From an uncultured Myxococcales bacterium (GTDB lineage Bacteria > Myxococcota > UBA4151), in contig CAXGWI010000044.1 in NCBI GenBank assembly GCA_964013405.1, positions 1-24,024 of the forward strand: a DNA stretch of 24,024 nt, written 5' to 3'. Every line of letters begins with the position of its first letter. Position 1 is the first letter of the stretch. The position numbers were made by a program, and so were the translations under genes. Shown one piece after another: positions 3,047 to 20,908 of the stretch. Under the pieces are notes generated by a model. The model was not told the DNA's origin. It made no database searches and saw nothing but the letters and a program-made list of their open reading frames with translations.

Positions 3047-4441
3047 ATGGGCATGCGGCGAGAGGTTAAACGAATCCACTTCGTTGGGATCGGCGGGATT
3101 GGGCAAAGCGGTATCGCTGAAGTGCTCCGAGCCCAGGACTTCAAGGTCTCAGGCTCGGATTTGGCCGCGGGGGCGATGGTCACCCGGCTTCGGTCCCAAG
3201 ACATCGAGGTGACGGTTCCCCACCAGGCCGAGGCCGTTGACGGCGCTGATGTCTGCGTCGTCTCCAGCGCGATCCCACCCAGTAACCCCGAGATCCAACG
3301 GGCCCATGAACTGGGCATTCCCGTCATTCGGCGGGCCGAGATGCTCGGAGAGTTGATTCGACTCCAAACCGGTCTGTGTGTCGCCGGTCAGCATGGCAAG
3401 ACCACGACGACCTCCATGGTCGCAGAGGTCCTCACCGCCGGTGGTTTGGATCCCACCGTGATCAACGGCGGTGTGCTCGCCAGCTTGGGGAGCAATGCCC
3501 GTTATGGCAAAGGCTCTTATCTGGTCTGTGAGGCAGACGAGAGCGACGGCTCCTTTTTGAGCCTGTCACCAACCTACGCCATCATCACCAATCTCGCTGG
3601 CGCCGACCACCTTGAAACCTGGCCAGGGGGGATGCCGGAGTTACAGGAAGCCTTTCTGCGCTTCGCCAACTCAGTGCCATTCTATGGGCGCATCGTCCTT
3701 TGTCATGATGATCCCTATCTGCGGGAGATGCTCCCCAGCCTGACTCGGCCCCACGTGACCTATGGCTTGGGAGCGACCGCCGACTATCAGGCCATGGAGT
3801 TAGAATACGGTCCGGGCTGGACCGCTTTTTCCATCCACCATCGAGGTGAAGATCTCGGTCGGATTCGGATGCCTGTGCTCGGGGCCCACAATGTACGCAA
3901 CGCCTTAGCTGCAGCAGCGATGGGCATGGAATTAGGCGTCGAGGTCGCCTCCATCCGGAGCGCACTTGAGCAGTTTGCCGGGGTAGGGCGCCGCTTCGAA
4001 ATCGCCGGCGAGGTGGGTGGCGTGATGGTGGTCCACGACTATGGGCATCACCCCACGGAGATCGAGGCGGTGTTGAAAGCCGCTCGCCGGGCCTGGCCCC
4101 AGCGGCCGATCCGGGCCCTTTTCCAGCCCCACCGCTACAGTCGTTTTCGCGATCAGTGGGACGAGTTTACCGCCTGCTTCGACGATGCCCAGGCCGTTGT
4201 TGTCAGTGACGTCTATTCGGCCGGCGAAGCGCCCATCGATGGCGTCGATTCCCCCTCCTTTGCGGAGGCTGCTCGGAGTCGGGGGCATCGGGGCGTTGCA
4301 TACGCCGGCCATGTGGCAACGGCCGCAGAACAGCTCGCGGCCCAAGCTGAGGCCGGTGAGATCCTTATCTTATTTGGAGCCGGTGACATCCACCGGCAGG
4401 TCCCCCCTCTCATGGAGAGACTGGAAGGAGGCGCTGCGTGA
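3047..4441 (+). CDS. murC: UDP-N-acetylmuramate--L-alanine ligase
   Basis: IHFVGIGGIG.SG, GSD, HGKTTTT, EADESDGSFL, GVGRRF, DYGHHPTEI, FQPHRYSR and GAGDI motifs. Start at ATG 3047 (alternative 3053) after GGGAG. Confidence 0.97.
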   Translation: MGMRREVKRIHFVGIGGIGQSGIAEVLRAQDFKVSGSDLAAGAMVTRLRSQDIEVTVPHQAEAVDGADVCVVSSAIPPSNPEIQRAHELGIPVIRRAEMLGELIRLQTGLCVAGQHGKTTTTSMVAEVLTAGGLDPTVINGGVLASLGSNARYGKGSYLVCEADESDGSFLSLSPTYAIITNLAGADHLETWPGGMPELQEAFLRFANSVPFYGRIVLCHDDPYLREMLPSLTRPHVTYGLGATADYQAMELEYGPGWTAFSIHHRGEDLGRIRMPVLGAHNVRNALAAAAMGMELGVEVASIRSALEQFAGVGRRFEIAGEVGGVMVVHDYGHHPTEIEAVLKAARRAWPQRPIRALFQPHRYSRFRDQWDEFTACFDDAQAVVVSDVYSAGEAPIDGVDSPSFAEAARSRGHRGVAYAGHVATAAEQLAAQAEAGEILILFGAGDIHRQVPPLMERLEGGAA

Positions 4442-5382
4442 AGACAGGCGCTCGGAGCGAGACGAGAATCGAAACCCAAACCCAGACGAGACAGAGCCGT
4501 CTCGTGGATCGGTTGGGAGGAGGGCTTCTCTTCGATCAACCCCTCAGCGAACTCTGCTCTTTCGGTGTGGGAGGCCCGCTTCAGTATCTCTACAAGCCAG
4601 GGACCACCCGGGAACTTCAGGATGCGTTGCTGATCGCGTCCGAACTGGCCATGCCCACGCGCTTTGTTGGCCTGGGGAGCCGGGTCTTGGCCGGCGATTG
4701 GGGATTCAAAGGTCTGGGGATTCGTTTGGGGGGCGCCTTGGCGCAGGTGGCCGTCGACCCCCAGGACCCGCGGTATCTCTTGGTGGGAGCCGGATGTCCG
4801 ATCGAGACCTTACTGCCGCAGGCTCTGGAGCACGGTATCGACGCGAGTTGTCTCGCCGGCCTGACGGGGAGTTTGGGCGGCGCGTTGCTCGCAGGAGACC
4901 CTGGTTATGACGCCGAGCTGCGGACCCTCATCGACAGCGCTGAGGTGATCGACCGAGAGGGCCAAGTCCGGTGGGTGGTTCGGGCCCGCTCTCAAACCAT
5001 CGCTCGCCTCGGTGGCTTTGCCGCACTCACCCGGGTGCGGTTGGGGCCAAGGGATCCAGATCTCGACACGGAACTTGCGGCAGCTCGGGCCAAGGCCTGT
5101 CAGGAGTTTCGTCAGGCCTTTCGGCCGGAGGGGCCCTTTCTCGGACCGATCTTCAAAAACCCAGAAGGCCAGTTGGCATCCCATTTGGTGGATCGGGCCG
5201 GTTTGCGGGGAGCCCGTATCGGTCAAGCACAGTTCTCTTTGGTGCAGTCGAACTATCTTGTGAACCTGGGGGGAGCGACAGCCCGGGACGCACTGGAGCT
5301 GATGGACCTTGCGACCTACCGGGTTAAACGGAAGCTAGGCTGCAGTCTGCAACTCGAGGTCCAGTTGATGGGGGCCTTCTAG
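4438..5382 (+). CDS. murB: MurB-fold protein (UDP-N-acetylenolpyruvoylglucosamine reductase family), catalytic motifs degenerate
   Basis: Aligns by eye over its length to type II MurB (PL...SFGVGGP, G.GS, GSLGGA, FKNP, N.LVNLGGATARD, L.LEV) and follows murC. The catalytic Ser and FAD-binding motifs are altered (see findings). Confidence 0.85.
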   Translation: MKTGARSETRIETQTQTRQSRLVDRLGGGLLFDQPLSELCSFGVGGPLQYLYKPGTTRELQDALLIASELAMPTRFVGLGSRVLAGDWGFKGLGIRLGGALAQVAVDPQDPRYLLVGAGCPIETLLPQALEHGIDASCLAGLTGSLGGALLAGDPGYDAELRTLIDSAEVIDREGQVRWVVRARSQTIARLGGFAALTRVRLGPRDPDLDTELAAARAKACQEFRQAFRPEGPFLGPIFKNPEGQLASHLVDRAGLRGARIGQAQFSLVQSNYLVNLGGATARDALELMDLATYRVKRKLGCSLQLEVQLMGAF

Positions 5383-5384
5383 GG

Positions 5385-6122
5385 ATGAACAACCTGGGCA
5401 GCGATATTCCTTCTTCTCCGCCAGCATCGGGCTTTCGCGTCGCGCCATTCCTCTTGGCCGCGCTCTGTCTCGCGCTGGTGGGGTGGACGGCCCAGTTAGC
5501 TGCTGAGGGCGACCTCTTTCGGATCCAGGAACTCGACGTCCGTGGGCTTCCGCCGGATCAAGCAGAGATTGCAAAAGTCTACGCGGGGATCCCCAAAGGA
5601 ACCCCGCTGTATGCGGTGGATGTGGAGGCCCTACGACGACGGCTCCAGTATCTCCCGGGCATCACGCAGATCGAAATCAAACGGGAACTTCCCAACCGCC
5701 TGATCATCGAACTGCTGCCCGATGAAGCCCGGGCCGCAGCCCTACTCAATGGGCGGCGAGTCCTCCTCAACCGTAAAGGTCAGGCCTTCTCCATGGATGA
5801 GAAGACCCAAGATCTTCCCATCGTGATCGGGGGGGAGACCGCTGGAGATCTGCGTTTGGCGGTGTCAGCGGTCAATGCTTTCGCCGCGGTACGTGAGCCT
5901 GACGAATTGGCGATGGTTCGGGTCGGCCCCCTTGGGGTCAGCCTTTGGGACCGGACGGGCGTCGAACATCGATTGGGGAAACGTCGCCTGCGGGAGCGAC
6001 TGGAGCGGGGCACTCGAGTCTTGGAAGAGGCCCGGCGGCGAGGTGTGAAACTAGATCGTTTACTGCTGGACGATGAGGGGCACCCTAATCGGGTGGTCGC
6101 TCGTTTAGGCCGGGGAGGCTGA
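5385..6122 (+). CDS. ftsQ: Cell division protein FtsQ/DivIB (TM + POTRA domain)
   Basis: Single N-terminal TM, then a POTRA-like segment (FRIQELDVRG...LYAVDVEALRRRLQYLPGITQIEIKRELPNRLIIEL) and LPIVIG. Directly upstream of ftsA. Confidence 0.85.
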   Translation: MNNLGSDIPSSPPASGFRVAPFLLAALCLALVGWTAQLAAEGDLFRIQELDVRGLPPDQAEIAKVYAGIPKGTPLYAVDVEALRRRLQYLPGITQIEIKRELPNRLIIELLPDEARAAALLNGRRVLLNRKGQAFSMDEKTQDLPIVIGGETAGDLRLAVSAVNAFAAVREPDELAMVRVGPLGVSLWDRTGVEHRLGKRRLRERLERGTRVLEEARRRGVKLDRLLLDDEGHPNRVVARLGRGG

Positions 6123-6132
6123 GGGGACGCTT

Positions 6133-7392
6133 ATGATGGGATACAGCGACTATTTCGTTGGGCTGGATATCGGCACACGAACCGTGCGTGCAGCGGTCTG
6201 TGCCAGTGATCTCGGCGGGGCTGAGTTGAAGCTCCTTGGCTTGGGTCAGGTCCCGAGCGAGGGCATGAACCGAGGGGTCGTGGTCGACATCAGTGCCGCG
6301 AAGAACGCGGTCCGTCAGGCCATCGAGGCGGCCGAGGCCGAAGCCGGCGTGGAAGTTGAGTCAGCCCTCGTGGGCATCGCTGGCAGCCATATCCGCTCGC
6401 TCAACAGCACCGGTGTCGTGGCGATCAAAGGCTTGGAGATCACGCCGAGCGATGTGCGCCGCTGCGTTGAAGCGGCCAAGGACAATGCGTTACCATCAGA
6501 CCGGCGCATCATCCATGCTCTACCCCAAGACTTTAAGGTCGACGACCACGTGGGTGTTCGTGAGCCGGTGGGGATGAGTGGGAAACGACTCGAAGCCCAA
6601 GTTCATGTCGTCAGCGTCTCGGTCAATGCCGCGAACAACGTGGTGAAGTCGGTCAAGGCCGCAGGCTTTGAAGTTGAGGATGTCATCCTCGATCCGCTGG
6701 CATCCGCGGCCGCTGTACTCGACGATGACGAGCGACAACTCGGGGTCTGTGTTGCCGATCTAGGCTCCGGAACCACCGACCTTGCCGTCTATCGAGACGG
6801 AGCGCTCATTCACAGCAGGGTGCTCCCCCTCGGCGGCGAAGCTCTGACCAAGGCCATCAGTACGGCCTTGCTCACCCCCTTCGCCGAGGCCGAGCGCGTG
6901 AAGGTGGAAGCAGGGGCTGCCTGTGCTCACCTTGTTGAGCCTGATGACTGGATGCAGATCGGCTCGGTCGGTGGTCGGGCGAGCCGCAAGGTTGATGTGC
7001 TGAGCGTTGCCCGGATCATCGAAGAGCAGATGTCTGGGCTCTTTGCTTCGATTCTGGCTGAGTTAGAAGCCAATGACCTGACGCAGCATCTCGGTGGCGG
7101 CGTGGTCATCACCGGCGGCGGGGCTCAGATGCGGGGCATGGCGGAGCTCGCGGAGCGGGTCCTGGGTCTTCCCGTTCGTCGGGGCACGGTCTCGGGCGTC
7201 TCTGGGATCCCGAGGCAGGTCCGTTCCGAATCGCTGGCGACCGTCCTGGGGCTCTGCCTCTTTGGTAAAGCCCAGGCCGGCGATCCCCTGCGGAGCGCGC
7301 GTCGGCATCGGATGGGTGATGGCGACCAGACTGGTTTGTTCAAGATTACCAAGAGGTTAATGGACTTCTTCTCGGGCTACGGTGAGGCCTAG
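6133..7392 (+). CDS. ftsA: Cell division protein FtsA (copy 1)
   Basis: LDIGT, GVVVDI, EPVGMSGKRLE, DLGSGTTD, AERVK and VITGGGA motifs. Ends in an amphipathic helix LFKITKRLMDFF. GAGGGG RBS. Confidence 0.96.
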   Translation: MMGYSDYFVGLDIGTRTVRAAVCASDLGGAELKLLGLGQVPSEGMNRGVVVDISAAKNAVRQAIEAAEAEAGVEVESALVGIAGSHIRSLNSTGVVAIKGLEITPSDVRRCVEAAKDNALPSDRRIIHALPQDFKVDDHVGVREPVGMSGKRLEAQVHVVSVSVNAANNVVKSVKAAGFEVEDVILDPLASAAAVLDDDERQLGVCVADLGSGTTDLAVYRDGALIHSRVLPLGGEALTKAISTALLTPFAEAERVKVEAGAACAHLVEPDDWMQIGSVGGRASRKVDVLSVARIIEEQMSGLFASILAELEANDLTQHLGGGVVITGGGAQMRGMAELAERVLGLPVRRGTVSGVSGIPRQVRSESLATVLGLCLFGKAQAGDPLRSARRHRMGDGDQTGLFKITKRLMDFFSGYGEA

Positions 7393-7455: not shown

Positions 7456-9279
7456 ATGGTCGATTTCGTGGAATTCATTGATGACGAATCCGAAAATCCA
7501 ACGTTGCCGTTGAAGGCGAGCGAAGCCAAACCCGGCGGCCCCGGTACCCAGGTGCGCGGCACCCCCCGCATCCTCGTTATCGGGACCGGTGGGGCCGGTG
7601 GCAACGTGGTCACCACGCTTCACGGCATGGGCCTTTCAGGCGCCGATTTGGCGGCGACCAATACGGACTCGCAAGACCTGGATGCCTGCCCTGTTAGTCA
7701 GAAAATTTTGCTCGGAGCCGACATTTGTCGCGGTGAGGGCACCGGAGGCATTGCCGAGCACGGTCATCTCGCCGTCATGGAGAGCGTGGACGCGGTCCAG
7801 GCCCTGGTGACGGGTACGGACATGGTCTTCGTCGTTCTCGGCGGTGGTGGTGGCACGGGCTCAGGAAGCGCTCCGGAGATCTGCCACATCGCTCGCAGCG
7901 CCGGCGCACTCACCGTCGCCGTGATGACGAAACCTTTCTCCTGGGAGGGCAGGAAGCGGATGCGGACCGCAAGCGAGGCTTGTGAAGCCTTGCGGAACAC
8001 GGCGGACGCAACCGTTGTCCTCTCGAATGACAGACTCCAGGCCCTCTGCGACGAAGATGCTTCCGTTGAAGAAGCCTACGAGGCCACCGATCGCCTGCTG
8101 GCCGAGACGGTGAAGGGCCTCGTCCATTTGGCCCAGGCGCCGGCCACTGGGAGTCGAAGCATCAATCTGGACTTCCGCGATGTGCGCACCGTTCTTGCTG
8201 CTCGCAGGGATGCCTTGATCGGGATCGGTTTGGCGAAGGGGCCCGACCGGGCGGAAAAGGCATTGGAGCTAGCCATCAGCAGCCCGCTCCTTGAAGATGC
8301 GACGCTTGAGGGTGCGACCGGTGTGCTCTGTCATATTCGTTACGGCACCGAGGCCCTGACGATGCGCGAGAAGGCTCGCATCGGGGCCCTCATCGGCGAT
8401 GTGATCGATGAGGATGCAGACTACATCCTCGGATTCTGTGCCGACACGGCGCTGACCGATGAAATCTCGGTCATGGTGGTTGCGACGGGTTTCGATGGCG
8501 GCGCCGTCGAGAAGCGGACGGCGAGCCGCTCCGACGGCGTTCGAGTCATGGCGCCCGCTTCGCGGCCCGCCGCCCATGTCGACCGGCGGGCCGTCCCGGT
8601 GGAAGCACCGGTGGAGCATCGTCCGAAGCCGAGTAACCCCATCGTTAGCAATCCCACGCCTGTGAGCCGGCGGCAGCTCAAACGGGCCGGTGTCCGACCG
8701 ACAGCGACCCAGGGTGAGTTGGTGATTCCGGCAGCCCCCCGGCCCCCGGCCACGCCGGCGCCGAGCCAGGTTCGCCCCCAAGAGGCGATGGTAGCCCAAG
8801 CGCAGCCAGCGGCCCCAGCGCCGATGGCGGTTCAGCCCTCGTTACCGGAGGTCGGCGCCACTGGGGGCAGCCCCAGCGCGGCGGAGCAGCGGGCGGCTGA
8901 GGGGCAACGTGCACCGAAAGTTCGCATCGGAGCGGTGGTCTATGATGAGGAGCCAATTCCTCAGGCAAGTCCGGTGACTGAGGCCGAGCCGGCGGCCCTT
9001 GATGGTGAACCTTCCGCCCTTTACGTTGAGAATCTGACGAGCATCCTGCCGACCACGGAGCAGGTCGCCGACCTCTACGCGGAAGGGCCCACGGAAGGGG
9101 AGCCCAGTCGGGCGCCGTTCTCCGTGCCGACTGCTCAGCATCTCCAACGCAACAGCACGCTCCGAGGAGCCCAATTGACACCGACGGTTGGGAACGACCC
9201 GGTTCATCTGGAGTCGCCACGGCAAGCCTCGCTTGTGGTCACGGACGATGACATCGATCGTCCACCCTTCCTCAAGTAG
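7456..9279 (+). CDS. ftsZ: Cell division protein FtsZ, divergent, with very long C-terminal linker
   Basis: VIGTGGAGGN, NTD.Q.L, tubulin signature GGGTGSG, PFSWEG..R, T7 loop NLDFRD and ATGF ending the core at residue 346. C-terminal peptide DIDRPPFLK. Confidence 0.95.
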   Translation: MVDFVEFIDDESENPTLPLKASEAKPGGPGTQVRGTPRILVIGTGGAGGNVVTTLHGMGLSGADLAATNTDSQDLDACPVSQKILLGADICRGEGTGGIAEHGHLAVMESVDAVQALVTGTDMVFVVLGGGGGTGSGSAPEICHIARSAGALTVAVMTKPFSWEGRKRMRTASEACEALRNTADATVVLSNDRLQALCDEDASVEEAYEATDRLLAETVKGLVHLAQAPATGSRSINLDFRDVRTVLAARRDALIGIGLAKGPDRAEKALELAISSPLLEDATLEGATGVLCHIRYGTEALTMREKARIGALIGDVIDEDADYILGFCADTALTDEISVMVVATGFDGGAVEKRTASRSDGVRVMAPASRPAAHVDRRAVPVEAPVEHRPKPSNPIVSNPTPVSRRQLKRAGVRPTATQGELVIPAAPRPPATPAPSQVRPQEAMVAQAQPAAPAPMAVQPSLPEVGATGGSPSAAEQRAAEGQRAPKVRIGAVVYDEEPIPQASPVTEAEPAALDGEPSALYVENLTSILPTTEQVADLYAEGPTEGEPSRAPFSVPTAQHLQRNSTLRGAQLTPTVGNDPVHLESPRQASLVVTDDDIDRPPFLK

Positions 9280-9285: not shown

Positions 9286-9774
9286 GTGAGGGACCTGGCT
9301 CAGGACCTGGTCCAGGCCTTGGCCCAACGGGCCGCGACGGTGACGTTTGCCGAGAGTTGTACGGGAGGCTTAATGGCAGCCACCCTGACCGGTGCAGCAG
9401 GTGCTTCCCGGGTCTTCCGTGGAAGTTACGTTCTCTATTGCGATGAAGAGAAGGCACGGCTTCTCGGCGTCGCCCCCGCTTTGATTCAGGAGCAGGGGGC
9501 GGTCAGCGAGGGCTGTGTCCTTTCTCTGCTGCAGGGCTTGGCCCGGGACCATGGTCCCTGCTATGCTGCGGCCGTGAGCGGGATCGCCGGGCCCGATGGA
9601 GCTCGTCCTGGGAAGCCTGTCGGTACGGTCTGGATCGGTCTCGCAAGCCCGAACGATCGTTACAGCAAGCGGTTTCAGTTCGATGGGGATCGAGAGGCCG
9701 TTCGACGACAGGCTGTAGAGGTCGGGCTGCAAGGGCTTCTTCGGTTGGTCAAAGAAGAGGAGGGACCCTGGTGA
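9286..9774 (+). CDS. cinA: CinA C-terminal domain protein (PncC-like nicotinamide-nucleotide amidohydrolase)
   Basis: AESCTGG, GASRVF.GS, Y.DEEK..LLGV, GAVSE, SGIAGPDG..PGKPVGTVWIG and F.GDREAVR motifs. No N-terminal MoCF domain. Confidence 0.92.
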   Translation: MRDLAQDLVQALAQRAATVTFAESCTGGLMAATLTGAAGASRVFRGSYVLYCDEEKARLLGVAPALIQEQGAVSEGCVLSLLQGLARDHGPCYAAAVSGIAGPDGARPGKPVGTVWIGLASPNDRYSKRFQFDGDREAVRRQAVEVGLQGLLRLVKEEEGPW

Positions 9775-11057
9775 GTGGATGGTTTCAAGCCGCAGCGCTG
9801 CCGGTGCCCGAACGGGCCGTGGTGGTTGTTGATCTGGGAGCTCAGATCTTTCGGGTGGGCATCATCGACGGTGAGGGCTGCACCTTGGCCTTGCAGGAGG
9901 CAGAGGCCGTCGGGGTCGACCGCCAGGGTCTGTTACAGGATCTGGCGCCGGCCGCAGAACTCTTGGGTAAGTTGGTCCGGCGGGTCGAAACTCTGGCCGA
10001 TCATCAGGCTGACGAGATCCTGACCACAGTACCCGGGCCCCTTCTGCGTAGTTACAGTAGCGATGGTAAGGTGGCGGTCCCGGAGGGGGTGGTCGAGTCC
10101 GGTCATCTCCTGCGCGCGGCCGAGCACGCCGTGTTTAGCGAAGAGATCAGTCCGGGGAGTCGGCTCGTCCATGCGCTGCGACGGGGCTGCCGTCTCGATG
10201 GCCAAGATCACGTGGTTCGCCCCATGGGGCTAGCAGGACATCGCCTGGTCGTGGACTTCTTCTGGGTGCTCTTGGAGCAGCGGGCTGCCGAAACCATCGA
10301 TCAACTCTTTAGCATGGCTGATCTGCCGAAACCGGCCTTTATCGCCAGTCCACTGGCCACAGCCATTGGTGGTCTGACCCGAGATGAGGCGATTCTCGGA
10401 GCCGTCAGTATTGACCTCGGTCACGCTGCGACCGGTATGACCGTCTGGAAGGATGAGGTGCCCCAGGCCCAGTTTCATCTGCCCTGTGGTGGACGGCATC
10501 TCACCGGTGACCTGAGGCAGGTCTTTCAGGTCTCGAGCGAAGTTGCCCTCGATATCATGAAGAGTCAGATCCCGGCCGTGGCCGAGATGGCCGATGAAGA
10601 AGGACGGATTCGAGTGGGTCGCAAGCGGATCAAGCGCCGCAAAGCGGCTCGAGTACTCCAGTCTCGCCTCGAGGATACCTTTCATCGGGTGCGGGGTCTC
10701 CTGTCGACCCAGGGGTATTGGGGCGAAGCGAACAATGGCATTGTCCTGAGCGGCGGTGTCTCTCGCCTGGAAGGGGTTCAGGCCCTGGCTGAGGCTGTCT
10801 TTGAATGCCCGGTACGCATTGCGGGGATGGAGGCTGAGGATCGCCAGTGGACCTGGCCACCCACCCATGAGGAGATCGTCAGCCTGAAGGCCCGCCCTGA
10901 TCTCGTCACCCTGGCGGGAGCGATGGAGTTTGCTCGCCTTAATCTCCTCAATCTTGGCAGCGGGAAGCGAGGCCCCCAGCCCACGACCACCGGGGTGCCA
11001 GCGCCCCAGGTCCATGACCTACGAGGCGAACTAGGGGCCTTACAGGAAGGTCTGTAG
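9771..11057 (+). CDS. Second, divergent FtsA paralog
   Basis: Colinear with FtsA1, including the FtsA-specific 1C subdomain (RLVHAL...RLDG...RPMGLAGHRL), PLATA...L..DE..LG...IDLG, LP.GG..LT.DL, GIVLSGG and LAE.VF..PVRI. GTGA overlap with cinA; GAGGAGG upstream. Confidence 0.85.
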   Translation: MSGWFQAAALPVPERAVVVVDLGAQIFRVGIIDGEGCTLALQEAEAVGVDRQGLLQDLAPAAELLGKLVRRVETLADHQADEILTTVPGPLLRSYSSDGKVAVPEGVVESGHLLRAAEHAVFSEEISPGSRLVHALRRGCRLDGQDHVVRPMGLAGHRLVVDFFWVLLEQRAAETIDQLFSMADLPKPAFIASPLATAIGGLTRDEAILGAVSIDLGHAATGMTVWKDEVPQAQFHLPCGGRHLTGDLRQVFQVSSEVALDIMKSQIPAVAEMADEEGRIRVGRKRIKRRKAARVLQSRLEDTFHRVRGLLSTQGYWGEANNGIVLSGGVSRLEGVQALAEAVFECPVRIAGMEAEDRQWTWPPTHEEIVSLKARPDLVTLAGAMEFARLNLLNLGSGKRGPQPTTTGVPAPQVHDLRGELGALQEGL

Positions 11058-11089: not shown

Positions 11090-12232
11090 CTAGAGCACCA
11101 AGAGCAAGATCAGGGCGAAGAGGAAGACCAAGACAGCGCCGCCGAAGATACCCAACATCAGCCAGTCCGGCTGGGCCTTCTTGACCGGTGAACTGATGGC
11201 CCGCGTCTCCTCGCGATTGGGAACCTCTTCCACCGCGGGTAGCGACTTCGACCACTCCCCCGAGTCGTCGAGTTCTAAGCGGCGGTCGGGGGCACTGAGT
11301 TCGGCGCTCTGGGCCGTCAGACTTTCCAAGTCTTCTTCCGTCGCGATGACGGTGACGGGTTCGTCCAACTCGTCGTCAGGCGGGTCCACACTGTCGACGG
11401 ATGGCTCGACCTCGACCAGATCATCTTCAAGGGGAAGTTCACTGCTGTCCTCAGCCTCGGTGGCTTCATGGGAAAGATCTTCCAGGGCATGTTGATCTTC
11501 AGGACTCAGGGGAATGTTCGATTGGCTTTCATCGAGTTCGCCGAGAAAGGCGGCGGCCGGATCGACGAAGACAAGACTCGTGGCACCGACGGTGATTTCC
11601 GTCCGATCCCTCAATTTGGTCCGCTCTGTGATTTCGGAACCATGGATTTTGACGCCATTTTTGGACTCGAGGTCTTCGACCCAAATCCCGGAGAAATCGA
11701 TGTCGAAGCGACAATGGCGCCGGCTGACGTTGGCCTCATCCAGGCAGATGTCGCAGTCATGGTCTCGGCCGAGGATCAGGAAGGGCTTGCGGCCATCGAG
11801 GAGGATGCGGTCGCCCTCCCGCTTGCCGCTGAGTACCCGGAGATAGGGCGTGTTGTCCTCGTTGCCGAGACTTCCGAGCATATCGGCGACCATCTGTTGG
11901 GCCAGAAAGCTCGTGTGTTCCTCACTGGCAAAGTCGAGCTTGGCCGCGTGAAAGATAACCTGGGTGCCTGCAACCTCGATACAGTCCCGGTCCCGCAGGC
12001 TGATGGATTGGGCCGACTCCATGCGAGCCCCATTGAGTCGGGTGCCGTGGCGACTGCCGAGGTCCTCGATGAGCCACTCAACCCCCCGCTGGAGGACTTT
12101 AAAATGATGCCGGCTAATGGCCGGGTTCTCCAAGACGATCTCGCAGTCCGCCTCTCGCCCAACCAGATAGCTGTTACCATCGGCCAGGTCGATGAAGCGG
12201 CCCTCCGAGACCACCTCAAGTTGGGCTGTCAC
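11090..12232 (-). CDS. Tandem FHA-domain protein with acidic linker and C-terminal transmembrane anchor
   Basis: Two FHA cores (GREADC...ISRHH...DLGSRHGT; GRDHDC...VSRRH...DLESKNG), a long D/E-rich stretch and a hydrophobic C-terminal tail. GTGA overlap with the upstream TPR gene. Confidence 0.9.
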   Translation of the reverse strand: MTAQLEVVSEGRFIDLADGNSYLVGREADCEIVLENPAISRHHFKVLQRGVEWLIEDLGSRHGTRLNGARMESAQSISLRDRDCIEVAGTQVIFHAAKLDFASEEHTSFLAQQMVADMLGSLGNEDNTPYLRVLSGKREGDRILLDGRKPFLILGRDHDCDICLDEANVSRRHCRFDIDFSGIWVEDLESKNGVKIHGSEITERTKLRDRTEITVGATSLVFVDPAAAFLGELDESQSNIPLSPEDQHALEDLSHEATEAEDSSELPLEDDLVEVEPSVDSVDPPDDELDEPVTVIATEEDLESLTAQSAELSAPDRRLELDDSGEWSKSLPAVEEVPNREETRAISSPVKKAQPDWLMLGIFGGAVLVFLFALILLLVL

Positions 12233-13353
12233 CGGCCACCACCTAGGCGCAGCACTCGAGTGATCTCCGCACAGGCGTCGATCCCTTCTGGGTCTCGACT
12301 GCGGGGCAGGGAGAGGACGGGCTCGCAGACCTCAAGAGCCCGCTGGCTGTTCTGCAACTCCACGAGGAAGCGAGCAAAAGTCACTCTCGTTGAGATGAAG
12401 CCGGGGTCCTGGCGTAGGGCTTCCTCACAGTAGGAGATGGCCTTTTCAACGTGGCGTTGGCCAGCGAAGGTCGCACAGAGGAACCGAAGCGGCTGCATAT
12501 TGCCCCGGGCCGCTTGGTCCCGCCAGGTGGCCTCCGCTTGTCGGACTTGGTCATCACGGGCAGCGAGGCAAGCCTGGACTTCTTGTTCCAAGTCTCCGAT
12601 CGGGCTCAGGTCCGCGCCGATCCGGCGGAGTTCGGCAATCCTTTGGCCCGCCTCCTCACAGCGCTTGAGTTGGTGACTCAGCATGACACCCAAGAGCAAA
12701 CAGTCCGTGAAGCTGGGCGCAGCCATTAAGCACTGTTCTACGCTGACCCGTGCCCGCTCAAGATCGGCAGCCGATGTCCGGGGACTGAGCATGGCCCGCT
12801 GCCGGTAAACCGTCCCGAGCAAGGCCCTCGCGTCGGGGCGTCGGGGCGCGAGTTCAGTGAGGCGGATGAGTTGGATTTCGGCTTCGTCGAGATCCTTGAG
12901 GACCTCTGCACCTCGGGCCGTGTCGCGCAGGACTCGAGAATAGAGTGCGTAGGCGTAGTTGTAGCGGGCGTCTAGGTAGCCTGGGTGGATCTGCAGGGCC
13001 GACTTGAAGAGTTCGATGGCCCGGTCGTAGGCCTGCCGCTCGAGAAAGTAGGTGCCCAGATTGTTACGGGCCTCAGCGAAGTCTGCATGGGCCTTGATCG
13101 CTTGGCGGTACCAGCGGGCGGCTTCTTCCCGTTCGCCAGCACCCCAGGCGGCGGTACCGAGACCGTTGAGGCAGGGGTGATAGTCGGGTGTGTACTCCAG
13201 GCACAGTTTGAAGGCTTCCCGGGCGCGGGGCCAATTCTCCTGATGCAGATAGGCCGCACCTTGGTTGACCAGCGCCAGCGCTTGGGGATGGGGCGGTGCA
13301 TGGGCCTTACAGCCCACCGCGAAGAGCAAAACGATCGCCAGCAGTCGCGTCAA
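12229..13353 (-). CDS. TPR-repeat lipoprotein (N-terminal half resembles PilF/PilW/Tgl-type TPR arrays)
   Basis: Signal peptide MTRLLAIVLLFAVGC with lipobox. TPR patterns LNGLG, AEARNNLG..FL, ARYNYA, ARALLG. TTG start with GGAGG upstream. Confidence 0.85.
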   Translation of the reverse strand: MTRLLAIVLLFAVGCKAHAPPHPQALALVNQGAAYLHQENWPRAREAFKLCLEYTPDYHPCLNGLGTAAWGAGEREEAARWYRQAIKAHADFAEARNNLGTYFLERQAYDRAIELFKSALQIHPGYLDARYNYAYALYSRVLRDTARGAEVLKDLDEAEIQLIRLTELAPRRPDARALLGTVYRQRAMLSPRTSAADLERARVSVEQCLMAAPSFTDCLLLGVMLSHQLKRCEEAGQRIAELRRIGADLSPIGDLEQEVQACLAARDDQVRQAEATWRDQAARGNMQPLRFLCATFAGQRHVEKAISYCEEALRQDPGFISTRVTFARFLVELQNSQRALEVCEPVLSLPRSRDPEGIDACAEITRVLRLGGGR

Positions 13354-13374
13354 AGGGGCCCAACCTCCGCAAAC

Positions 13375-13402
13375 AGTCTACGACGGGAATCGCATGGGGC
13401 AA
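13375..13402 (-). promoter_or_regulatory. Candidate sigma70-type promoter for the TPR-FHA pair
   Basis: Minus strand TTGCCC-N16-TAGACT, 4/6 match to each consensus hexamer, just upstream of the GGAGG RBS. Confidence 0.35.
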
Positions 13403-13411
13403 GGATTGCGC

Positions 13412-13756
13412 TCAATACCAACAGATCTCATGGCGACTCCGCTCAAAAACAACTTCGAGCAGTTTGGTCTGGGCCTTCACCGACGTGTCTTCTCCCGTGC
13501 AGTCCATGGCACAGCGGTCATTCGACATCTCGGAGCACTGGTAGTCACCGGCCTCTGCCATGCAATTCCACCAGCAGTCTTCCAAGGCCTTCTCAGCCTC
13601 GGTCAGCTTTTTCTGGCACTCCCGGCATTGCTCAAAATTGCTATCGACGATCTCGGCGGCATCTCCATCACAATTCATTAACCGCTCCACTTCGCAACGG
13701 TCTTTGGCGCAGCTCATCGTGGTGGCGAGGGCGGCGATGATGAAGAATCGATACAT
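13412..13756 (-). CDS. Small cysteine-rich putative lipoprotein (114 aa), function unknown
   Basis: Start reassigned to ATG 13756 (AAGGA upstream). Signal MYRFFIIAALATTMSC, then 10 more Cys including CxxC and two CxxxC. Fills the gap between same-strand genes. Confidence 0.7.
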   Translation of the reverse strand: MYRFFIIAALATTMSCAKDRCEVERLMNCDGDAAEIVDSNFEQCRECQKKLTEAEKALEDCWWNCMAEAGDYQCSEMSNDRCAMDCTGEDTSVKAQTKLLEVVFERSRHEICWY

Positions 13757-13797
13757 GGTGCTTCCTTGGCAACGATACAACAGTCAGGCTTTGCCTG

Positions 13798-16731
13798 TCA
13801 CTGGGCACAGAGCGTATCGTACTCAATTTCGATTTGCCCGCCCCGGCTTGGGATCGATCCAGCGTTGAAAACGACGGCGTTGGCTTCCCGGTCATAGAAC
13901 CAGCCGGTATTGCCTCCTTCTTGGCCCCGAGCGACTGGGTTACCATCCACCCGAACCTCGATCGTCTCAACCATTGGGCGCCGCGTCAGTCCAAAAGAGG
14001 ACCTGAAGGCGAAGGTGTCGAGTCCTAAAGCCCGCATCATTCCCCGCCAGTCGTTGGAGCAGATGTCTTGGGTCAGTCCATTGAGGCGATTGGCCAGTTC
14101 CATGTAGCGGCTCCCTCGATCCGCTTCACAGTTGTTACCGCCCTGTCCGACGATGGCCGAGAAGTTGATCAGGTCCCGGTTTCGCCAGCCCTTAATGGAG
14201 CGGAAGGCATCTTCGTAGAGTCCGACGGGGCCGCGACTCTGGTCCTCTTCATCGCTGACTGCGATGATGTAGAGTTTGGCTTCTTCCCGGAGGAACCCAG
14301 CATTGAGGCCGTCTTCGGCGAGACGATCGTGGCGGAAGAAATTCCGTGCCGCCTCGAGACCGGCCTCCCGGCTATCCGAACTGTTTCGATCGGGATTCCT
14401 GTTCCGGCTCACCCGGACATTGCATTCGAAATGCTCATACAGGCCGGGGGTATTGGCCTGGAGGTAAGGGGGCGGATCGCAGGCGGTATAGACTCCGCTC
14501 ATGTCACCATCAGCCAACGTGGTCGTGACCGCGATCTGAAAGTTCACGTTAATCTGCTGGGTCGCGAAACGGATGAACTCCCGGAAGTTACTGGCCAACG
14601 CATTTTGTTCGTCGCTCATGGAGCCCGAGTCATCCACCACCCAGAGCACATCCACCATGGGTTCGGCTGCTTGTTCAAAGCGGTCGATGTGATGGGTTTC
14701 TAGGGTCCCCTCGCCAACGAGGGGAACGGTGAATGCCTGCTCGTCTCCATCATTGTTTTCGATGATGAGAAGACCTTCCATGGGGCCCGCTTGGCGGGGG
14801 AACATGCGCACGCGCACTTCCGCGGTGTCTCCAGGGCGGACGACCAGTGGCACACGGGGGGCCCGGGTAATGCGGAATTCAGGATCCGAATTCTCCTCGA
14901 TGGAGAAGCCATTAATGGTGAGGTCAGCGTTGCCTAGATTGTAGATCGTCACCGTCTCTTCGACGCTGCCGCAACCGACGGTTTCGATGCCGAAGTCTAA
15001 GCGACCGGGAACGACGTCGATGTCTGGCTCTGCCGGTGTTGCTGAGAACCCGATGGAGAAGCTTCCTGGGCCCTCTTCATGTTCAAAGGTTTGGGGGGAA
15101 TCGGTGAAGATGGTGACGCCGTTACCGCACAAGGCGGTGGCTTGAGCACCACCTTGACCGCAGAGTAGGTCGCCTAAAGGCCCGGGAATGGGCGGCGAAC
15201 GGTGGGGCTGATAGGTGCCCGAATCGGTGCCTGCTAGTTGGGTGGGACGGAACGCGACCTCGATTCGGTATTCCTCCCCTGGTGCAATGAAGATACCCTC
15301 GTGATTTCCAAGGATCGAAAACTCCCGTTCGGGCGTTTGTTGCGGCTCAAAATTGAGGCCGAGAATGGAGCAAAGGGTGGATCCCGTATTCAGGATTTTG
15401 ATGGGGAGGATTTTCTCACTGCCCACCAAGACCGAGCCGAACTGAAGGATGCCATGGCGTCGGGTGAGCCGACCCAGTCCACCGGCATTCTCTGGAGTCA
15501 CTTCCAGCTCACAGATGGGCGCGCCGCCGCCATTTGCGGCGAGGGAGACGGTCACATTTTGATTGTTCGGATCGGGAACGAGCTCGTTTTCGAGAAAGTC
15601 GATTTCGATCGTGGCGTTGGCAGCGACAACGTCCTGCCTGTTTGGGCTTTCATACTGGACGATCAACTCGATCTGTCCTGTTTCGGGACGGGGAGCCGGG
15701 TTGAGGGTCTCTTCGTCGATGGTACCCCGCAGTCGGACTGGGAAGTTGAGGCCGTTCAGCCCTTCGATAATCTGGAACTCTTGGGAGCCCAGGGGGCCGC
15801 GAATATCCATGACATCGCAGTCGAGGCCGCCGACATTTGAGATGACGAGTCGCCGGGTAAGAGAATTGCCGCCGGGCACTCGTCCGAAGTGAATTTCGGT
15901 GGGGAGTACAGAGATCCGGCAGGCCGGTGCAGCGAGGCCACCGCCACGTAGGGGAATAATGAAGACCCCTTCCGGTGCTCGGGGGTCGTTGGTCTCAACC
16001 AGGACAGCCCCGCTCTTGTTACCCTCGGTCTCTGGGGCAAAGCGAAGGCCTTGGATGGTGGCCTCACCGGGGGCTAAACTGCCCGTGGTCGAGGAGGGGT
16101 CTGAGAAACTAAAGGCATCGTCACTGCCGTCCTGGAGACTGACGTTGGTGATCTCCAGAGCAAGGCGCCCACAACTGGTGAGACTGAGTTCTTTTTGGAC
16201 TTGGCCGCCCTGGAAGGCGTCACCGAATTCCATGGGGACGGGAGCTGCGCAGAGACGAGGTGCGAGACCATCGGCCGTCAGGAGCAGCCGGGCTTCGGGG
16301 TGCGCTGGGTCCGAGCTGACGACGACGAGGTCGGCGCAATCTTGGCCGTCGTCCAATGGCTTGTACTCCAAGACGAAGTCATGGGTCATTTCGGTGGCTA
16401 AGGTGCCTTCGAAATAGGGGACCGTGAACTCGCCTTCCGTGTAGCCAGCGGTGCAACTGGGGTCGGTACTGGCTTCAATGCGTATGGCTTCGACGAAGAG
16501 ATCCTTGGTCCCGATGCTCTCCAACTGGAGATTGGCGAGGGCCTGCTGGCCGTAGGGCACTGCACCGAGGTCAATGGACCGCAGTCCATCCCGGTAGTTG
16601 CTCCCGCGGTCGAGGTCGTGGATATCCAGGGAAGGAACAGGGAGTCTCGTGATCAGTTCATCCTCACAGTTGCAGTTGGCAAGCGCCAGTGGCAGCAACG
16701 CGAAGAGGCTCCAAAAAGGTCGTCGTCCCAT
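13798..16731 (-). CDS. Large surface lipoprotein: about five ASH/choice-of-anchor-D-like Ig repeats plus a VWA (MIDAS) domain (977 aa)
   Basis: Start reassigned to ATG 16731 (GGAGGAG upstream), giving signal MGRRPFWSLFALLPLALANC. Repeat starts IDLGAVPYG, MEFGDAFQG, IHFGRVPGG, LQFGSVLVG, LDFGIETVG. VWA motif VDVLWVVDDSGSM and later SDEEDQS. Confidence 0.85.
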   Translation of the reverse strand: MGRRPFWSLFALLPLALANCNCEDELITRLPVPSLDIHDLDRGSNYRDGLRSIDLGAVPYGQQALANLQLESIGTKDLFVEAIRIEASTDPSCTAGYTEGEFTVPYFEGTLATEMTHDFVLEYKPLDDGQDCADLVVVSSDPAHPEARLLLTADGLAPRLCAAPVPMEFGDAFQGGQVQKELSLTSCGRLALEITNVSLQDGSDDAFSFSDPSSTTGSLAPGEATIQGLRFAPETEGNKSGAVLVETNDPRAPEGVFIIPLRGGGLAAPACRISVLPTEIHFGRVPGGNSLTRRLVISNVGGLDCDVMDIRGPLGSQEFQIIEGLNGLNFPVRLRGTIDEETLNPAPRPETGQIELIVQYESPNRQDVVAANATIEIDFLENELVPDPNNQNVTVSLAANGGGAPICELEVTPENAGGLGRLTRRHGILQFGSVLVGSEKILPIKILNTGSTLCSILGLNFEPQQTPEREFSILGNHEGIFIAPGEEYRIEVAFRPTQLAGTDSGTYQPHRSPPIPGPLGDLLCGQGGAQATALCGNGVTIFTDSPQTFEHEEGPGSFSIGFSATPAEPDIDVVPGRLDFGIETVGCGSVEETVTIYNLGNADLTINGFSIEENSDPEFRITRAPRVPLVVRPGDTAEVRVRMFPRQAGPMEGLLIIENNDGDEQAFTVPLVGEGTLETHHIDRFEQAAEPMVDVLWVVDDSGSMSDEQNALASNFREFIRFATQQINVNFQIAVTTTLADGDMSGVYTACDPPPYLQANTPGLYEHFECNVRVSRNRNPDRNSSDSREAGLEAARNFFRHDRLAEDGLNAGFLREEAKLYIIAVSDEEDQSRGPVGLYEDAFRSIKGWRNRDLINFSAIVGQGGNNCEADRGSRYMELANRLNGLTQDICSNDWRGMMRALGLDTFAFRSSFGLTRRPMVETIEVRVDGNPVARGQEGGNTGWFYDREANAVVFNAGSIPSRGGQIEIEYDTLCAQ

Positions 16732-16792
16732 CCATTCTCCTCCAGGCACACCGTGCCGCCGGCAGTCTTGCCTTACTTTTTGCCTCGTTCGC

Positions 16793-17713
16793 ATGGGACG
16801 AATGACGGTCCTTTGTACCTTTTTCGCCTGTGTCCAGTCGCCTGCGCCCAAGCCCGTGAAAACCCAGCGTTCCTTGCAGACGGTGGCCGCCACCCGGCCT
16901 GAGCAGCGGCCTGTTCCCGCGCCGCCGAAAGAAGTCCGGAAGCGGGCAAAGAAAAAACCGAAGCGATCCCGCTCGAAACGGCGCCGTCAGCGGATGCGCT
17001 CGATCATGAAGCGCTTCCAGTCCTTGTCGCCGGTGGTCGTGAGCGACCGTCGCTCATTTCAACCGCTCCCGCCCCGGCGACAGCGCCTTTGGCAGGACCT
17101 CCTAGAGCAAGCCGGTGGTTGGGCGGCCCGGGCCCGGGGCGAGCAGGACCGTCGTTTTGCCTCGGTTTTGGCTCGTTGGTTAGAGGATCAACTGGCGTTG
17201 GAGCAGCGACAGTTTTCCCGGGATAAAGAGTTGGAGTTGGCGACTTGGGAAATGATTCGCTTCTGTGCGGCCCGGGGTGAAGTCGAGAATCTGCGCTTAA
17301 CCGTGCTCGAACAACGGCTGACTTGGCCCTTACGGCAGGTGGTCGTGACCAGTTTCTTTGGCCCCCGGAAGAACCCATTCGGCAAGGGGGAGCGCCAGCA
17401 CGAGGGGATCGATTTGGCTGCGGCCGTAGGGACTCCGGTCTTCGCAATCGCCGCAGGGCGAGTCACCCGGGCCCGGACCACAGGGGGCTATGGTCGGATG
17501 GTGGAGATCGATCATGGCAAAGGCTTAGTGAGCCGTTACGCCCATCTTTCTTCCAGTGATCTCCGGCCCGGTGATGTGGTCACCGCCGGGAGTCAGGTTG
17601 GTGAGACTGGTCAGTCGGGACGGGTGACAGGGCCACATCTACATCTCGAGGTTCGGCTCAAGGGGGCCCCGGTAGACCCCCTGCTGTTGGCCGGTTGGCG
17701 ATCACCGCCTTAG
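16793..17713 (+). CDS. M23-family metallopeptidase (peptidoglycan endopeptidase-like), start uncertain
   Basis: Zinc motifs HEGID (HxxxD) and GPHLHLEV (HxH), plus TSFFGPR..P, GYG..VEIDH and YAHLS. The ORF-track start overlaps the divergent gene. ATG 16793 gives a short possible lipoprotein signal MGRMTVLCTFFAC. Confidence 0.88.
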   Translation: MGRMTVLCTFFACVQSPAPKPVKTQRSLQTVAATRPEQRPVPAPPKEVRKRAKKKPKRSRSKRRRQRMRSIMKRFQSLSPVVVSDRRSFQPLPPRRQRLWQDLLEQAGGWAARARGEQDRRFASVLARWLEDQLALEQRQFSRDKELELATWEMIRFCAARGEVENLRLTVLEQRLTWPLRQVVVTSFFGPRKNPFGKGERQHEGIDLAAAVGTPVFAIAAGRVTRARTTGGYGRMVEIDHGKGLVSRYAHLSSSDLRPGDVVTAGSQVGETGQSGRVTGPHLHLEVRLKGAPVDPLLLAGWRSPP

Positions 17714-18284: not shown

Positions 18285-19733
18285 CTACTCGAAGGAGATT
18301 TGTACCGGCGTTGGGCGGTTCTCAAGGGTTCCATCGCCCAACTGGCCGACGCCATTGTGACCCCAGCACCAAAGGCGGCGCCGTTGGTCGATGCCGCAGT
18401 TGTGGTAATAGCCGGCTTCGATGCTCACAAACCCGCTGTCGCCATCCCTCGCCACGGCCTGGGGAATCAACTGATCCTCCATGGTCCCGATGCCCAGTTG
18501 GCCGCCGTGGTTCTGGCCCCAGCACATGAAGCCGCCGGATTCTTGGAGGCCGCAACTGTGGGTGCCACCCACCGCCATCTGCGTGACTCGATCGAGGAGA
18601 ATGACAGGGGTACCGTTGACCGAAGGGTTGGTGCTGCCATTACCCAGTTGGCCGTTGTGGTTCGCACCCCAGCAATAACCCGTGTTGGCCACGGTTCGGA
18701 TACAGCCATGAAACCAGTTTACCGAGAGGCTCTGTGCCGGTGGAAGCGTGGGCGCTAAGGGGGGGCTTAGGAGCTCAGCAGCGCCCTCGAAAGCCAATTG
18801 GTTTTCGTGATTCGAGCCCCAGCAGTGGACGTTGACCCCACCGCTTAGGGTGCAGGTATTTGCGATACCCAGGGCCACTTGCTGGACCCCAGAGACGCCA
18901 AGAACCCGCGTGGGCTCGAAGCGAGAAACTCGATCTCCAAGGCCCAGTTGGCCCTCTTCGTTGCGGCCCCAGCAAAAGAGATCCCCGTTGCTCAGTGCGC
19001 AACTATGACCCTTCGCGAGGGCAAAATCTTGGACCACGGGGAGGCCCCCCACCGCGATCGGGGGATGCACGTCGAGATTCTCGTTCGCCAATTGCCCCCA
19101 AGTGTTCCGGCCCCAGCACTGCATGGAGCCCTGATTGTCCAAGGCGCAGGCGTGACTCTCGCCGGCACCGATCCGTGTGACGTTGGCCAAGTTGACCGGG
19201 ACGGGGCGAGTTTGCACGGCCCCTTCTCGTCCCAATTGTTGGAACTCGTTGTCACCCCAGCAATACACCTGGCCGTTGCCCTGTAGGCTGCAGGTGAAGT
19301 GCCCACCTGCTGCGATTTGTGTGGTTTCACAGAGGCCGCCGCAAGGGGCGGGGCCGGTGTCCTGGGGCCCGCTGTCCTGGGGCCCGCTGTCCTGGGGCCC
19401 GCTGTCCTGGGGCCCGGCATCGCTGGCTCCCCCGTCTACAGCGACGCCTGCGTCCCCCGTATCCCCGGTGGCGGTTGTATCTGGCAACGAACCGTCGGCG
19501 GGGCCGGCGTCGTTGGGGCCCGTGTCCTCTGGGCCGTCGCCGAGGCTTGCGTCGAGGCCGGCATCACCACCCCCATCGGGGGGCAAGCCGCCTCCGTCAC
19601 CACCATCGGGAAAGGACTGGGTATCGGTCCGAGCCGAAGGCCCTCCGTCGTCCAGGCGCGGAGGTGGGAGGTCGAGCACGAGCCCACAGCCCAGACTCAG
19701 TGACCAGGTCATCACCAGAAGTTTGCTTCTCAT
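18285..19733 (-). CDS. RCC1/BLIP-II-repeat beta-propeller lipoprotein with Asp/Gly/Pro-rich linker
   Basis: Signal ending SLGC, a ~100-aa DGG/DAG linker, and seven repeats of G..H.C.L..G...CWG.N..GQLG. ATGA overlap with the engB stop. Confidence 0.9.
   Translation of the reverse strand: MRSKLLVMTWSLSLGCGLVLDLPPPRLDDGGPSARTDTQSFPDGGDGGGLPPDGGGDAGLDASLGDGPEDTGPNDAGPADGSLPDTTATGDTGDAGVAVDGGASDAGPQDSGPQDSGPQDSGPQDTGPAPCGGLCETTQIAAGGHFTCSLQGNGQVYCWGDNEFQQLGREGAVQTRPVPVNLANVTRIGAGESHACALDNQGSMQCWGRNTWGQLANENLDVHPPIAVGGLPVVQDFALAKGHSCALSNGDLFCWGRNEEGQLGLGDRVSRFEPTRVLGVSGVQQVALGIANTCTLSGGVNVHCWGSNHENQLAFEGAAELLSPPLAPTLPPAQSLSVNWFHGCIRTVANTGYCWGANHNGQLGNGSTNPSVNGTPVILLDRVTQMAVGGTHSCGLQESGGFMCWGQNHGGQLGIGTMEDQLIPQAVARDGDSGFVSIEAGYYHNCGIDQRRRLWCWGHNGVGQLGDGTLENRPTPVQISFE
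19358..19416. repeat. 15-bp in-frame tandem repeat, about 4 copies (encodes GPQDS)
   Basis: TGTCCTGGGGCCCGC three times exactly plus a 14/15 copy. Confidence 0.95.
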
Positions 19734-20341
19734 GCATCCTCCGTGAGGGACCAGAGCCGTTCGGTCAACGCAGAGATTCCAATCCCTTTCGTCGAGGAGG
19801 TCAACAGGGGCGGCCGGGCGAGACCCATTCGCATTTGGAGCGCGTCGAGGGCTGGCCGCCGTTTGTTTCGAGCCAACTGGTCACTTTTCGTGATGACCAC
19901 CTCAGCATAGCCGACATCGCAGAGCCCATCGAAGGCCGCGAGGTCCTGGTCCGAAGGGCCTCGCTTGAGGTCGATGAGCAGGATGGCTAAGCGATGGCGA
20001 CCGGCCGATAGATAGCGGTTAATCCGCCGACTCATCTCCCGTTGTTGGTCCTTGCTCACACGGGCGTAGCCATAACCGGGAAGGTCGACAAATCGAACGG
20101 CTCGCCGTTCATCGGCCGGGTTCACGAGGTCTGCGGAGAAGAAGTTGAGTTCCTGGGTTTTGCCCGGACGGTCGGCCACCCGGACGAGCTTACGGGTGCC
20201 AAAGAGCGCGTTGAGTAGAGAACTCTTACCCACGTTGCTCCGACCCGCGACCACGATTTCCGCTGTTGCTTCATCGCTCGGGAATTGGGCTTCCCGCACA
20301 GCACCGATGAGAAAGCTGGGGTTGATGATCCGGAAGCTCAT
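19730..20341 (-). CDS. engB: Ribosome biogenesis GTP-binding protein EngB (YihA/YsxC)
   Basis: G1 GRSNVGKSS, G2 PGKT, G3 DLPGYGYA and G4 TKSD; 203 aa. Confidence 0.96.
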   Translation of the reverse strand: MSFRIINPSFLIGAVREAQFPSDEATAEIVVAGRSNVGKSSLLNALFGTRKLVRVADRPGKTQELNFFSADLVNPADERRAVRFVDLPGYGYARVSKDQQREMSRRINRYLSAGRHRLAILLIDLKRGPSDQDLAAFDGLCDVGYAEVVITKSDQLARNKRRPALDALQMRMGLARPPLLTSSTKGIGISALTERLWSLTEDA

Positions 20342-20348
20342 CGAGTGG

Positions 20349-20849
20349 TCAGGGGCTCGGCGCCGGGGCCGGCGTCGGGGCCGGCGTTGGGGCCGGTGTC
20401 ACCGCGGGCGACTTGGTGCCCTTGTGGTGTAGCTTTCGCCAGAGCTCGACGAGATTCAGTGGCTTGAGTTTGGGGCTGTGCCCGCCCACGTGACAGCGCT
20501 GGCAGGTTGCGAGGCTCTGGGGCAGGAGCCCAAGATAACCCCGAAGGTTCGGGTCACGCATGATGTGGGAGGGAGCGTAGGCGCTGCCCGGTCCGTGGCA
20601 GGTCTCACAGTGGACGCCAGCCTGTCGGTTTTGTCGGTCCGGTGCGTGACACGTCAGGCATTGAGGGCGCTTTCGGTCCGCTTCCTTGAGGCGGTGCCAA
20701 CTTTTCGCGTGTAAGTGAGTCGCCCAGTCAGTATGTGCTGCCTCGTGGCACTTGCTGCAGCGCTCTGGACCGATGCTCCGCGGGGGATCAGACCAAGTGA
20801 TGCCCGGTCCCAAAAGTAGAACCAGGACCGCAGCGAGACGCCAACACAT
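20349..20849 (-). CDS. Periplasmic tetraheme c-type cytochrome (c554-like family)
   Basis: Signal peptide and four CXXCH motifs (CSKCH, CLTCH, CETCH, CQRCH). Family patterns G.E.C..CH....W...HA and GV.CE.CHGPGS. Pro/Thr/Ala tail; GGAGGA RBS. Confidence 0.9.
   Translation of the reverse strand: MCWRLAAVLVLLLGPGITWSDPPRSIGPERCSKCHEAAHTDWATHLHAKSWHRLKEADRKRPQCLTCHAPDRQNRQAGVHCETCHGPGSAYAPSHIMRDPNLRGYLGLLPQSLATCQRCHVGGHSPKLKPLNLVELWRKLHHKGTKSPAVTPAPTPAPTPAPAPSP
20365..20400. repeat. 12-bp tandem repeat x3 (encodes TPAP in the cytochrome tail)
   Basis: GGGGCCGGCGTC GGGGCCGGCGTT GGGGCCGGTGTC. Confidence 0.85.
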
Positions 20850-20908
20850 GATGTCCTCCGTAGGGGCGCTAACACGGCGATCGCGCGGCGGGCAACGATG
20901 GAGTGAGC

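Follow-up and report, generated by a model that had tools for sequence, protein, structure and literature searches.

Why would a bacterium keep, in the middle of its dcw cluster, a full-length murB gene whose product seems to lack the active site of MurB? The question is raised by a 24,024-nt stretch of DNA, hereafter the window, which is contig C44 of a 3.9-Mb, 94% complete genome. Gene order in the window is murD-ftsW-murG-murC-[degenerate murB]-ftsQ-ftsA-ftsZ-cinA-second ftsA, and a degenerate gene lies between murC and ftsQ in all six genomes of its small Myxococcota class, which comprise two genera. The gene and its borders are as follows:

3047..4441, + strand: murC, the upstream neighbour, starting at the ATG common to its relatives
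4426..4441, + strand: Shine-Dalgarno-like AGGAGG (4426-4431) and GTGA start/stop overlap with murC, read from the sequence
4438..5382, + strand: degenerate type II murB, full length; a 314-aa ORF recognized by Pfam domains, alignment and predicted fold
5385..6122, + strand: ftsQ, downstream neighbour of the degenerate murB, with ddl absent in between

The GTG start codon of the degenerate murB overlaps the murC stop codon within GTGA, and ftsQ starts 2 nt past the stop codon of the degenerate gene, confirming the full-length, murC-coupled ORF of the preliminary description. In the source genome ddl has been relocated to contig C9. Further along the window, ftsZ (7456-9279, +) encodes a 607-aa FtsZ whose core domains are followed by some 250 aa rich in Pro and Ala. 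The second FtsA (9771-11057, +), encoded after ftsZ-cinA, is diverged, about 27% identical to the first and under the ftsA cut-off, with altered nucleotide-loop motifs (DLGAQ, DLGHAAT); it was found in 5/6 class genomes with a within-genus identity of 90%, and may be another disarmed or repurposed paralog of the same dcw cluster. After the cluster, on the opposite strand (11090-16893, -), lie genes for a double-FHA membrane protein, a TPR protein and a protein of 1031 aa that contains several Ig domains of the ASH/HYDIN type. Genes in the region 18285-23461 specify an RCC1-repeat protein that contains PQDSG in short tandem repeats, a GTPase similar to EngB, a small protein like a multi-haem cytochrome, CoaE and a Kelch-like protein.

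Comparison with MurB enzymes assigned the changed and the surviving active-site residues to these positions:

4669..4683, + strand: G78-L-G80-S81-R82; GxG and Ser retained, conserved Asn replaced by Arg (alignment)
4699..4701, + strand: W88 of GDWGF, invariant in 21/21 clade rows and present in 0% of reference MurBs
4861..4908, + strand: LTG replacing IPG and AGDPGY replacing MNAGAY (alignment)
5005..5007, + strand: R190, probable counterpart of S. aureus R188, retained in this genus (alignment)
5110..5112, + strand: R225, counterpart of S. aureus R225, retained in this genus (alignment)
5146..5148, + strand: P237 on the proton-donor Ser position (alignment)
5245..5256, + strand: QSNY replacing HANF/HAGF (alignment)
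5356..5358, + strand: E307, counterpart of S. aureus E308, retained (alignment)

The motifs listed in the preliminary description (GSR, GLTG, AGDPGYD, PFLGPIF, QSNY, LQLEV) were right as written. Its placement of P237 at the donor Ser also held: an ungapped alignment to S. aureus MurB (1HSK; positions counted by hand) puts P237 on S238, E307 on E308 and R225 on R225. The pairing of R190 with R188 has low confidence in this alignment, and its column is stable in the other alignments. An active MurB carries a Ser or Cys proton donor in GSxF, where the degenerate protein has P237. Among 278 reference MurBs the donor column holds Ser in 223, Cys in 53 and another residue in 2; because 276/278 have Ser or Cys there, P237 is not a chance substitution. 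The accessible part of PMC3689657 likewise gives Ser or Cys as the proton donor of type II MurB, and S229A studies are cited in the accessible part of PMC12844806.

The loss extends beyond the donor side chain. Proline has no backbone NH. In P. aeruginosa MurB both substrates are bound by a Glu and by the Ser through its backbone amine (PMC3689657, accessible part), and a Pro at 237 therefore removes that backbone NH. The same part of PMC3689657 describes an Asn as the K+ ligand and the GXG motif as important for FAD binding; the Asn would correspond to the N82 position, lost here. Taken over the motifs GxG[ST]N, IPG, NAG and HxNF, the degenerate MurB keeps GxG-S and has lost the Asn, the Pro, NAG and the His; the Tyr of YRxS is absent as well. 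The Arg, Arg, Glu set of the active enzyme (S. aureus R188, R225, E308) is present as R190, R225 and E307, R190 being the less certain; the sister genus has lost this set. W88, C120 and D135 are rare among references and invariant in 21/21 clade rows, which include near-duplicates. When ten sites were scored, at least nine were kept in 275/278 reference MurBs, six in the degenerate ORF and one to four in the sister genus. The statement of the preliminary description that solely the C-terminal Glu remains was therefore too strong: G78-x-G80-S81, R190 and R225 survive beside E307, and the protein may therefore still bind FAD in this genus. At the family level, the protein matches FAD_binding_4 and MurB_C (Pfam), in keeping with a type II MurB of about 300 aa, and passes the cut-offs of 0/7 NCBIfam MurB models (168.8 vs 259; 100.6 vs 144.5). 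Such degenerate proteins carry the database label 'UDP-N-acetylmuramate dehydrogenase'.

If this copy is inactive, the cell needs another source of UDP-MurNAc, and the preliminary description had foreseen either a second murB or salvage of MurNAc. A genome search returned a second murB on contig C2 (C2:4110-5210), which is above the family cut-off, is nearest to long type I structures and has all its type I motifs intact (GGGSN, IPG, QNIGAYG, YRSS, SAGSFF, PEP). Contamination is an unlikely origin for it: the G001 copy is 84% identical and has the same downstream esterase gene. Type I murB is full length in 4/6 class genomes and a contig-end fragment in G004; it was not found in G005, a 59% complete genome. 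The murA gene, which the earlier description had also proposed looking for, is intact in the source genome and full length in 4/6 class genomes. As for salvage, on contig C19 a gene for an APH-family kinase stands immediately before one for a nucleotidyltransferase, an amgK-murU-like pair whose second member is under the MurU cut-off. Because intact type I murB and murA genes are present, the dcw copy would be dispensable for de novo synthesis, which, on this gene content, therefore appears to do without it. The source genome (G000) also contains two mreB copies (C6:36601-37581 and C3:18465-19448), both above the family cut-off.

An assembly error was rejected as the source of the changes, since P0008, a protein of 97% identity that belongs to a different assembly, shares them, as do three more relatives (76-88%). 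Short contigs from 3/4 sequencing runs match parts of the degenerate murB at 95-100% identity, none covering the P237 codon; they come from marine metagenomes of three studies, one run perhaps being the source itself, and the host group is likely marine. Among the sequencing runs listed as containing the sequence there was none of RNA. A decaying pseudogene was rejected too: the gene is free of stop codons in 6/6 genomes, its omega is at most 0.17 where defined, and its presence is not patchy. AlphaFold2 modelled the protein with pLDDT 91.6 and pTM 0.86 from 145 rows, and with 81.0 and 0.73 from 17 clade-only rows. The best matches of the predicted model are type II MurBs (TM 0.78-0.81, Z 31-32), with type I at Z 26-28; the predicted fold has the three domains of MurB and lacks the Tyr loop and insertion that mark type I. 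Several features of a pseudoenzyme were found together: a fold kept, as predicted, with its catalytic residues lost, an unbroken ORF whose protein is under purifying selection and, judged by motifs, an intact counterpart murB in the same genome.

Profile searches recovered solely this clade above the level of ordinary MurB (15/47 matches in one search, 3 of the best 150 clusters in another), and the ESM Atlas returned ordinary MurB clusters alone. Clade rows formed one branch in two quick trees, with SH-aLRT support of 99 (12 clade rows among 75) and 100 (8 among 56). In the second tree the sisters of the clade are MurBs of Myxococcaceae and Anaeromyxobacteraceae (support 87); the first leaves the placement open. 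Because murC-murB-ddl occupies the matching place in other Myxococcota, the degenerate murB likely descended vertically. In G004 (L035:1392-3557, -) murC and the degenerate murB form a single 721-aa ORF, joined by an in-frame deletion of about 140 nt through which MurC loses its C-terminus; it is either a misassembly or a strain-level fusion.

To the preliminary description's suggestion of a dN/dS analysis, the answer was purifying selection. Between G000 and its closest relative, G001, amino acid identity of the degenerate MurB is 87.9%, against 88.8% for MurC, 87.6% for MurG, 84.9% for FtsW, 84.4% for type I MurB and 81.6% for FtsQ. Identity by codon position is 0.85, 0.94 (0.939; murC 0.944) and 0.41, and 101/157 four-fold sites differ, spread evenly over the gene, much as in the neighbour genes. 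An amino acid identity of 87.9% alongside even saturation at synonymous sites places the purifying selection on the protein itself. In sister-genus pairs, omega was 0.09-0.17 for the degenerate murB (4/6 pairs; 2 undefined) vs 0.02-0.08 for murC, values that are rough since dS is saturated; through this saturation YN00 gave none for most of the pairs compared. Between genera the degenerate MurB is only 31-33% identical, the lowest of eight genes (FtsQ 35-39%, type I MurB 52%, MurC 66-67%), and in the first quick tree stem branches are long and crown branches short (0.79 and 1.22 vs about 0.05-0.25). Constraint acts on the protein and is strong within genera, with large change along two stems.

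As a control, we examined other members of the phylum. In a sample of 251 phylum genomes, two MurB_C matches were found solely in the five class members included and in G226, a tally that more decayed dcw copies could escape and that includes one unpublished row, G183, which bears on it alone. Thirty genomes were picked, mainly for a weak MurB_C score, and 26 had a usable murC locus, four loci from the murC search (L156-L159) having been removed before this count as likely Mpl-type paralogs. An intact type II murB stands next to murC in 2/26 loci. In the other 24, the next gene after murC is ddl (6) or ftsQ (18; two called by eye), with no MurB-like ORF next to murC, and each of these 24 genomes has a single long-type MurB. 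Since the control genomes were chosen for a single match, they establish deletion as common but cannot gauge the rarity of retention. Type I MurBs of the class cluster, with support 94, with f24 and f28, two families included in those 24. In G226 the dcw type II murB is intact, and so is its type I murB (loci L160 and L186); such a genome may illustrate how replacement by type I begins.

The reading we prefer, and to which we give an even chance, is that the dcw type II MurB is retained as a folded protein that partners the Mur or division machinery without catalysis, the type I MurB likely doing the chemistry. Judging from its residues, the degenerate MurB is in all probability inactive and very likely makes no UDP-MurNAc. 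It has quite probably been retained for a protein-level job, and about half of that probability would go to a structural one, in which it would be translated together with MurC and FtsQ and serve as their adaptor or scaffold. On this account the type I murB would have assumed catalysis, as gene content suggests, the dcw copy would have lost its active site, as the motifs suggest, and it would have been retained since the folded protein does other work, as selection suggests; that work may most plausibly be a structural contact inside the co-translated Mur or division machinery. A pseudoenzyme with a protein role is favoured because the copy is conserved like MurC, whereas the 24 type I-only relatives dropped theirs. 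The preliminary description's catalytically dead, retained pseudoenzyme stands as far as a very likely loss of the canonical chemistry and purifying selection on the protein are concerned.

Several observations weigh against the preferred reading. Of no use to a pure scaffold, GxG-S, R190, R225 and E307 are retained in this genus; the gene is, of those compared, the fastest-changing between genera and less constrained than murC in the sister genus; and the donor column holds Ser in three rows of the sister genus. Because 24 relatives live without the dcw copy, any such role would not be general. Complex prediction for MurC with the degenerate MurB, which scored 0.00 in two runs with the controls unfolded, speaks neither for nor against a contact.

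The surviving Arg, Arg, Glu and GxG-S leave room, in this genus and not in the sister genus, for a ligand sensor or an altered flavoenzyme. A ligand-binding regulator is unlikely in our estimation; its cleft would still bind FAD, a pyridine nucleotide or a UDP-sugar, through which MurC or the divisome would sense precursor or redox state. GxG-S, R190, R225, P230, G236 and E307 are retained in 5-6/6 rows of this genus, and according to the accessible part of PMC3689657 the counterpart Arg, Arg and Glu make contact with flavin and substrate; in the sister genus, however, Asp or Glu occupies G78 in 14/15 rows and R225 and E307 are lost in 15/15, so the ligand site is not class-wide. We consider improbable a flavoenzyme that in this genus would act on a new substrate or carry out the NADPH-oxidising half reaction alone. 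Its FAD-side residues survive, and long stems followed by short crowns would fit a functional shift, but the protein lacks IPG, NAG, the Asn and the backbone NH at position 237, the two genera share no new polar catalytic residue at the site, and there is no adjoining new enzyme gene. We see similarly little probability in a spacer whose translation does no harm, kept only to couple murC with ftsQ-ftsA-ftsZ or for an internal promoter, so that selection would avoid just stops and misfolding. The tight overlaps on either side and the fastest between-genus divergence of the genes compared would suit such a spacer, whereas its within-genus conservation equals that of MurC, and in 18 relatives murC and ftsQ adjoin with no such gene between them. 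An internal promoter or DNA element as the constraint was unsupported: the evenly saturated four-fold sites contain no cold spot, and a scan of 4300-6200, covering sigma-70-type sites alone, found 0 with 0.2 expected. Finally, a working MurB using water or another residue as proton donor, for which both Arg, the Glu and an apparently intact predicted fold could be cited, is highly improbable given the scored-site counts in both genera, the failure at all NCBIfam cut-offs and the intact type I copy in the genome.

MurB is generally treated as a purely catalytic, essential enzyme. A very likely chemistry-less copy conserved like MurC, in a phylum where displaced copies are otherwise deleted, would amount to a natural separation-of-function allele; within the scope of a small, uncultured class, it offers a test of the long-standing idea of a cytoplasmic Mur complex, its binding partners being candidate non-catalytic contacts of MurB. 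We tentatively extend the preferred reading of a non-catalytic partner to a possible but doubtful generalization: MurB might have a hidden second, structural or regulatory job in the Mur-divisome machinery, masked by essential catalysis, the class having split both jobs upon type I takeover, and the repeated disarming of MurB elsewhere might mark a wider family of MurB-fold regulators.

In the literature searched (largely outside subscription journals) we found no inactive MurB paralog, and the accessible parts of PMC4929429, PMC13204101 and PMC4324946 hold nothing relevant to one. The nearest setting for a structural Mur role comes from PMC10214165, on natural Mur chimeras and a proposed complex of Mur proteins in the cytoplasm. 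In the accessible part of that source MurC-MurB fusions make up 11% of Mur chimeras; it differs from our case in that the MurB halves are not given there as inactive and a MurB-MurC contact is not among the results presented. Natural MurC-MurB fusions of 738-797 aa with intact MurB motifs (P0142, P0168, P0173) occurred among our profile matches.

A parallel case is provided by MurB paralogs of Ktedonobacteria, whose description was not found in the literature searched. One reference row with Pro at the donor site, P0038, belongs to this paralog clade, in which Pro occupies the Ser column in 43/120 matches (14 unparsed), for example WP_220197889 and WP_201388828; named members include Ktedonobacter and Ktedonospora, and cultured strains carry the paralogs. 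Like the degenerate MurB, they have changed His and Glu columns and a MurB annotation. Their origin is separate, union with the Myxococcota clade being rejected (AU p = 0.015), and they differ in setting, the Ktedonobacteria dcw copy being canonical (7/7 loci with murC) and the altered copies lying outside dcw. The many standalone paralogs (P0038, P0197-P0316, L187-L266) have the catalytic Glu changed to Asp or Asn, the His changed and the Ser replaced by Pro, Thr or Ala; they often lie beside Usp, acyl-CoA ligase/GNAT, Sir2 or oxidoreductase genes.

Among characterized enzymes, the degenerate MurB resembles type IIa MurB (EC 1.3.1.98; PDB 4PYT, 3TX1, 1HSK, 9DTK) in length, in its two Pfam domains, in GxG, the two Arg and the Glu, and in predicted fold, with an rmsd of 2.4-2.6 Å over about 290 residues at Z 31-32; its place after murC is that of the dcw MurB of other Myxococcota. 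It is unlike type IIa MurB in having Pro for the catalytic Ser, in the loss of the Asn, IPG, NAG, the YRxS Tyr and the His, in falling below the family cut-offs and in sharing its genome with a second murB. That other copy, at C2:4110-5210, is of type I (PDB 5JZX, 4JAY, 1MBB), from which the degenerate MurB is set apart by the absence of the type I insertions and by the lower Z of 26-28. All in all, the observation is real, and the degenerate MurB is likely a pseudoenzyme form of MurB.
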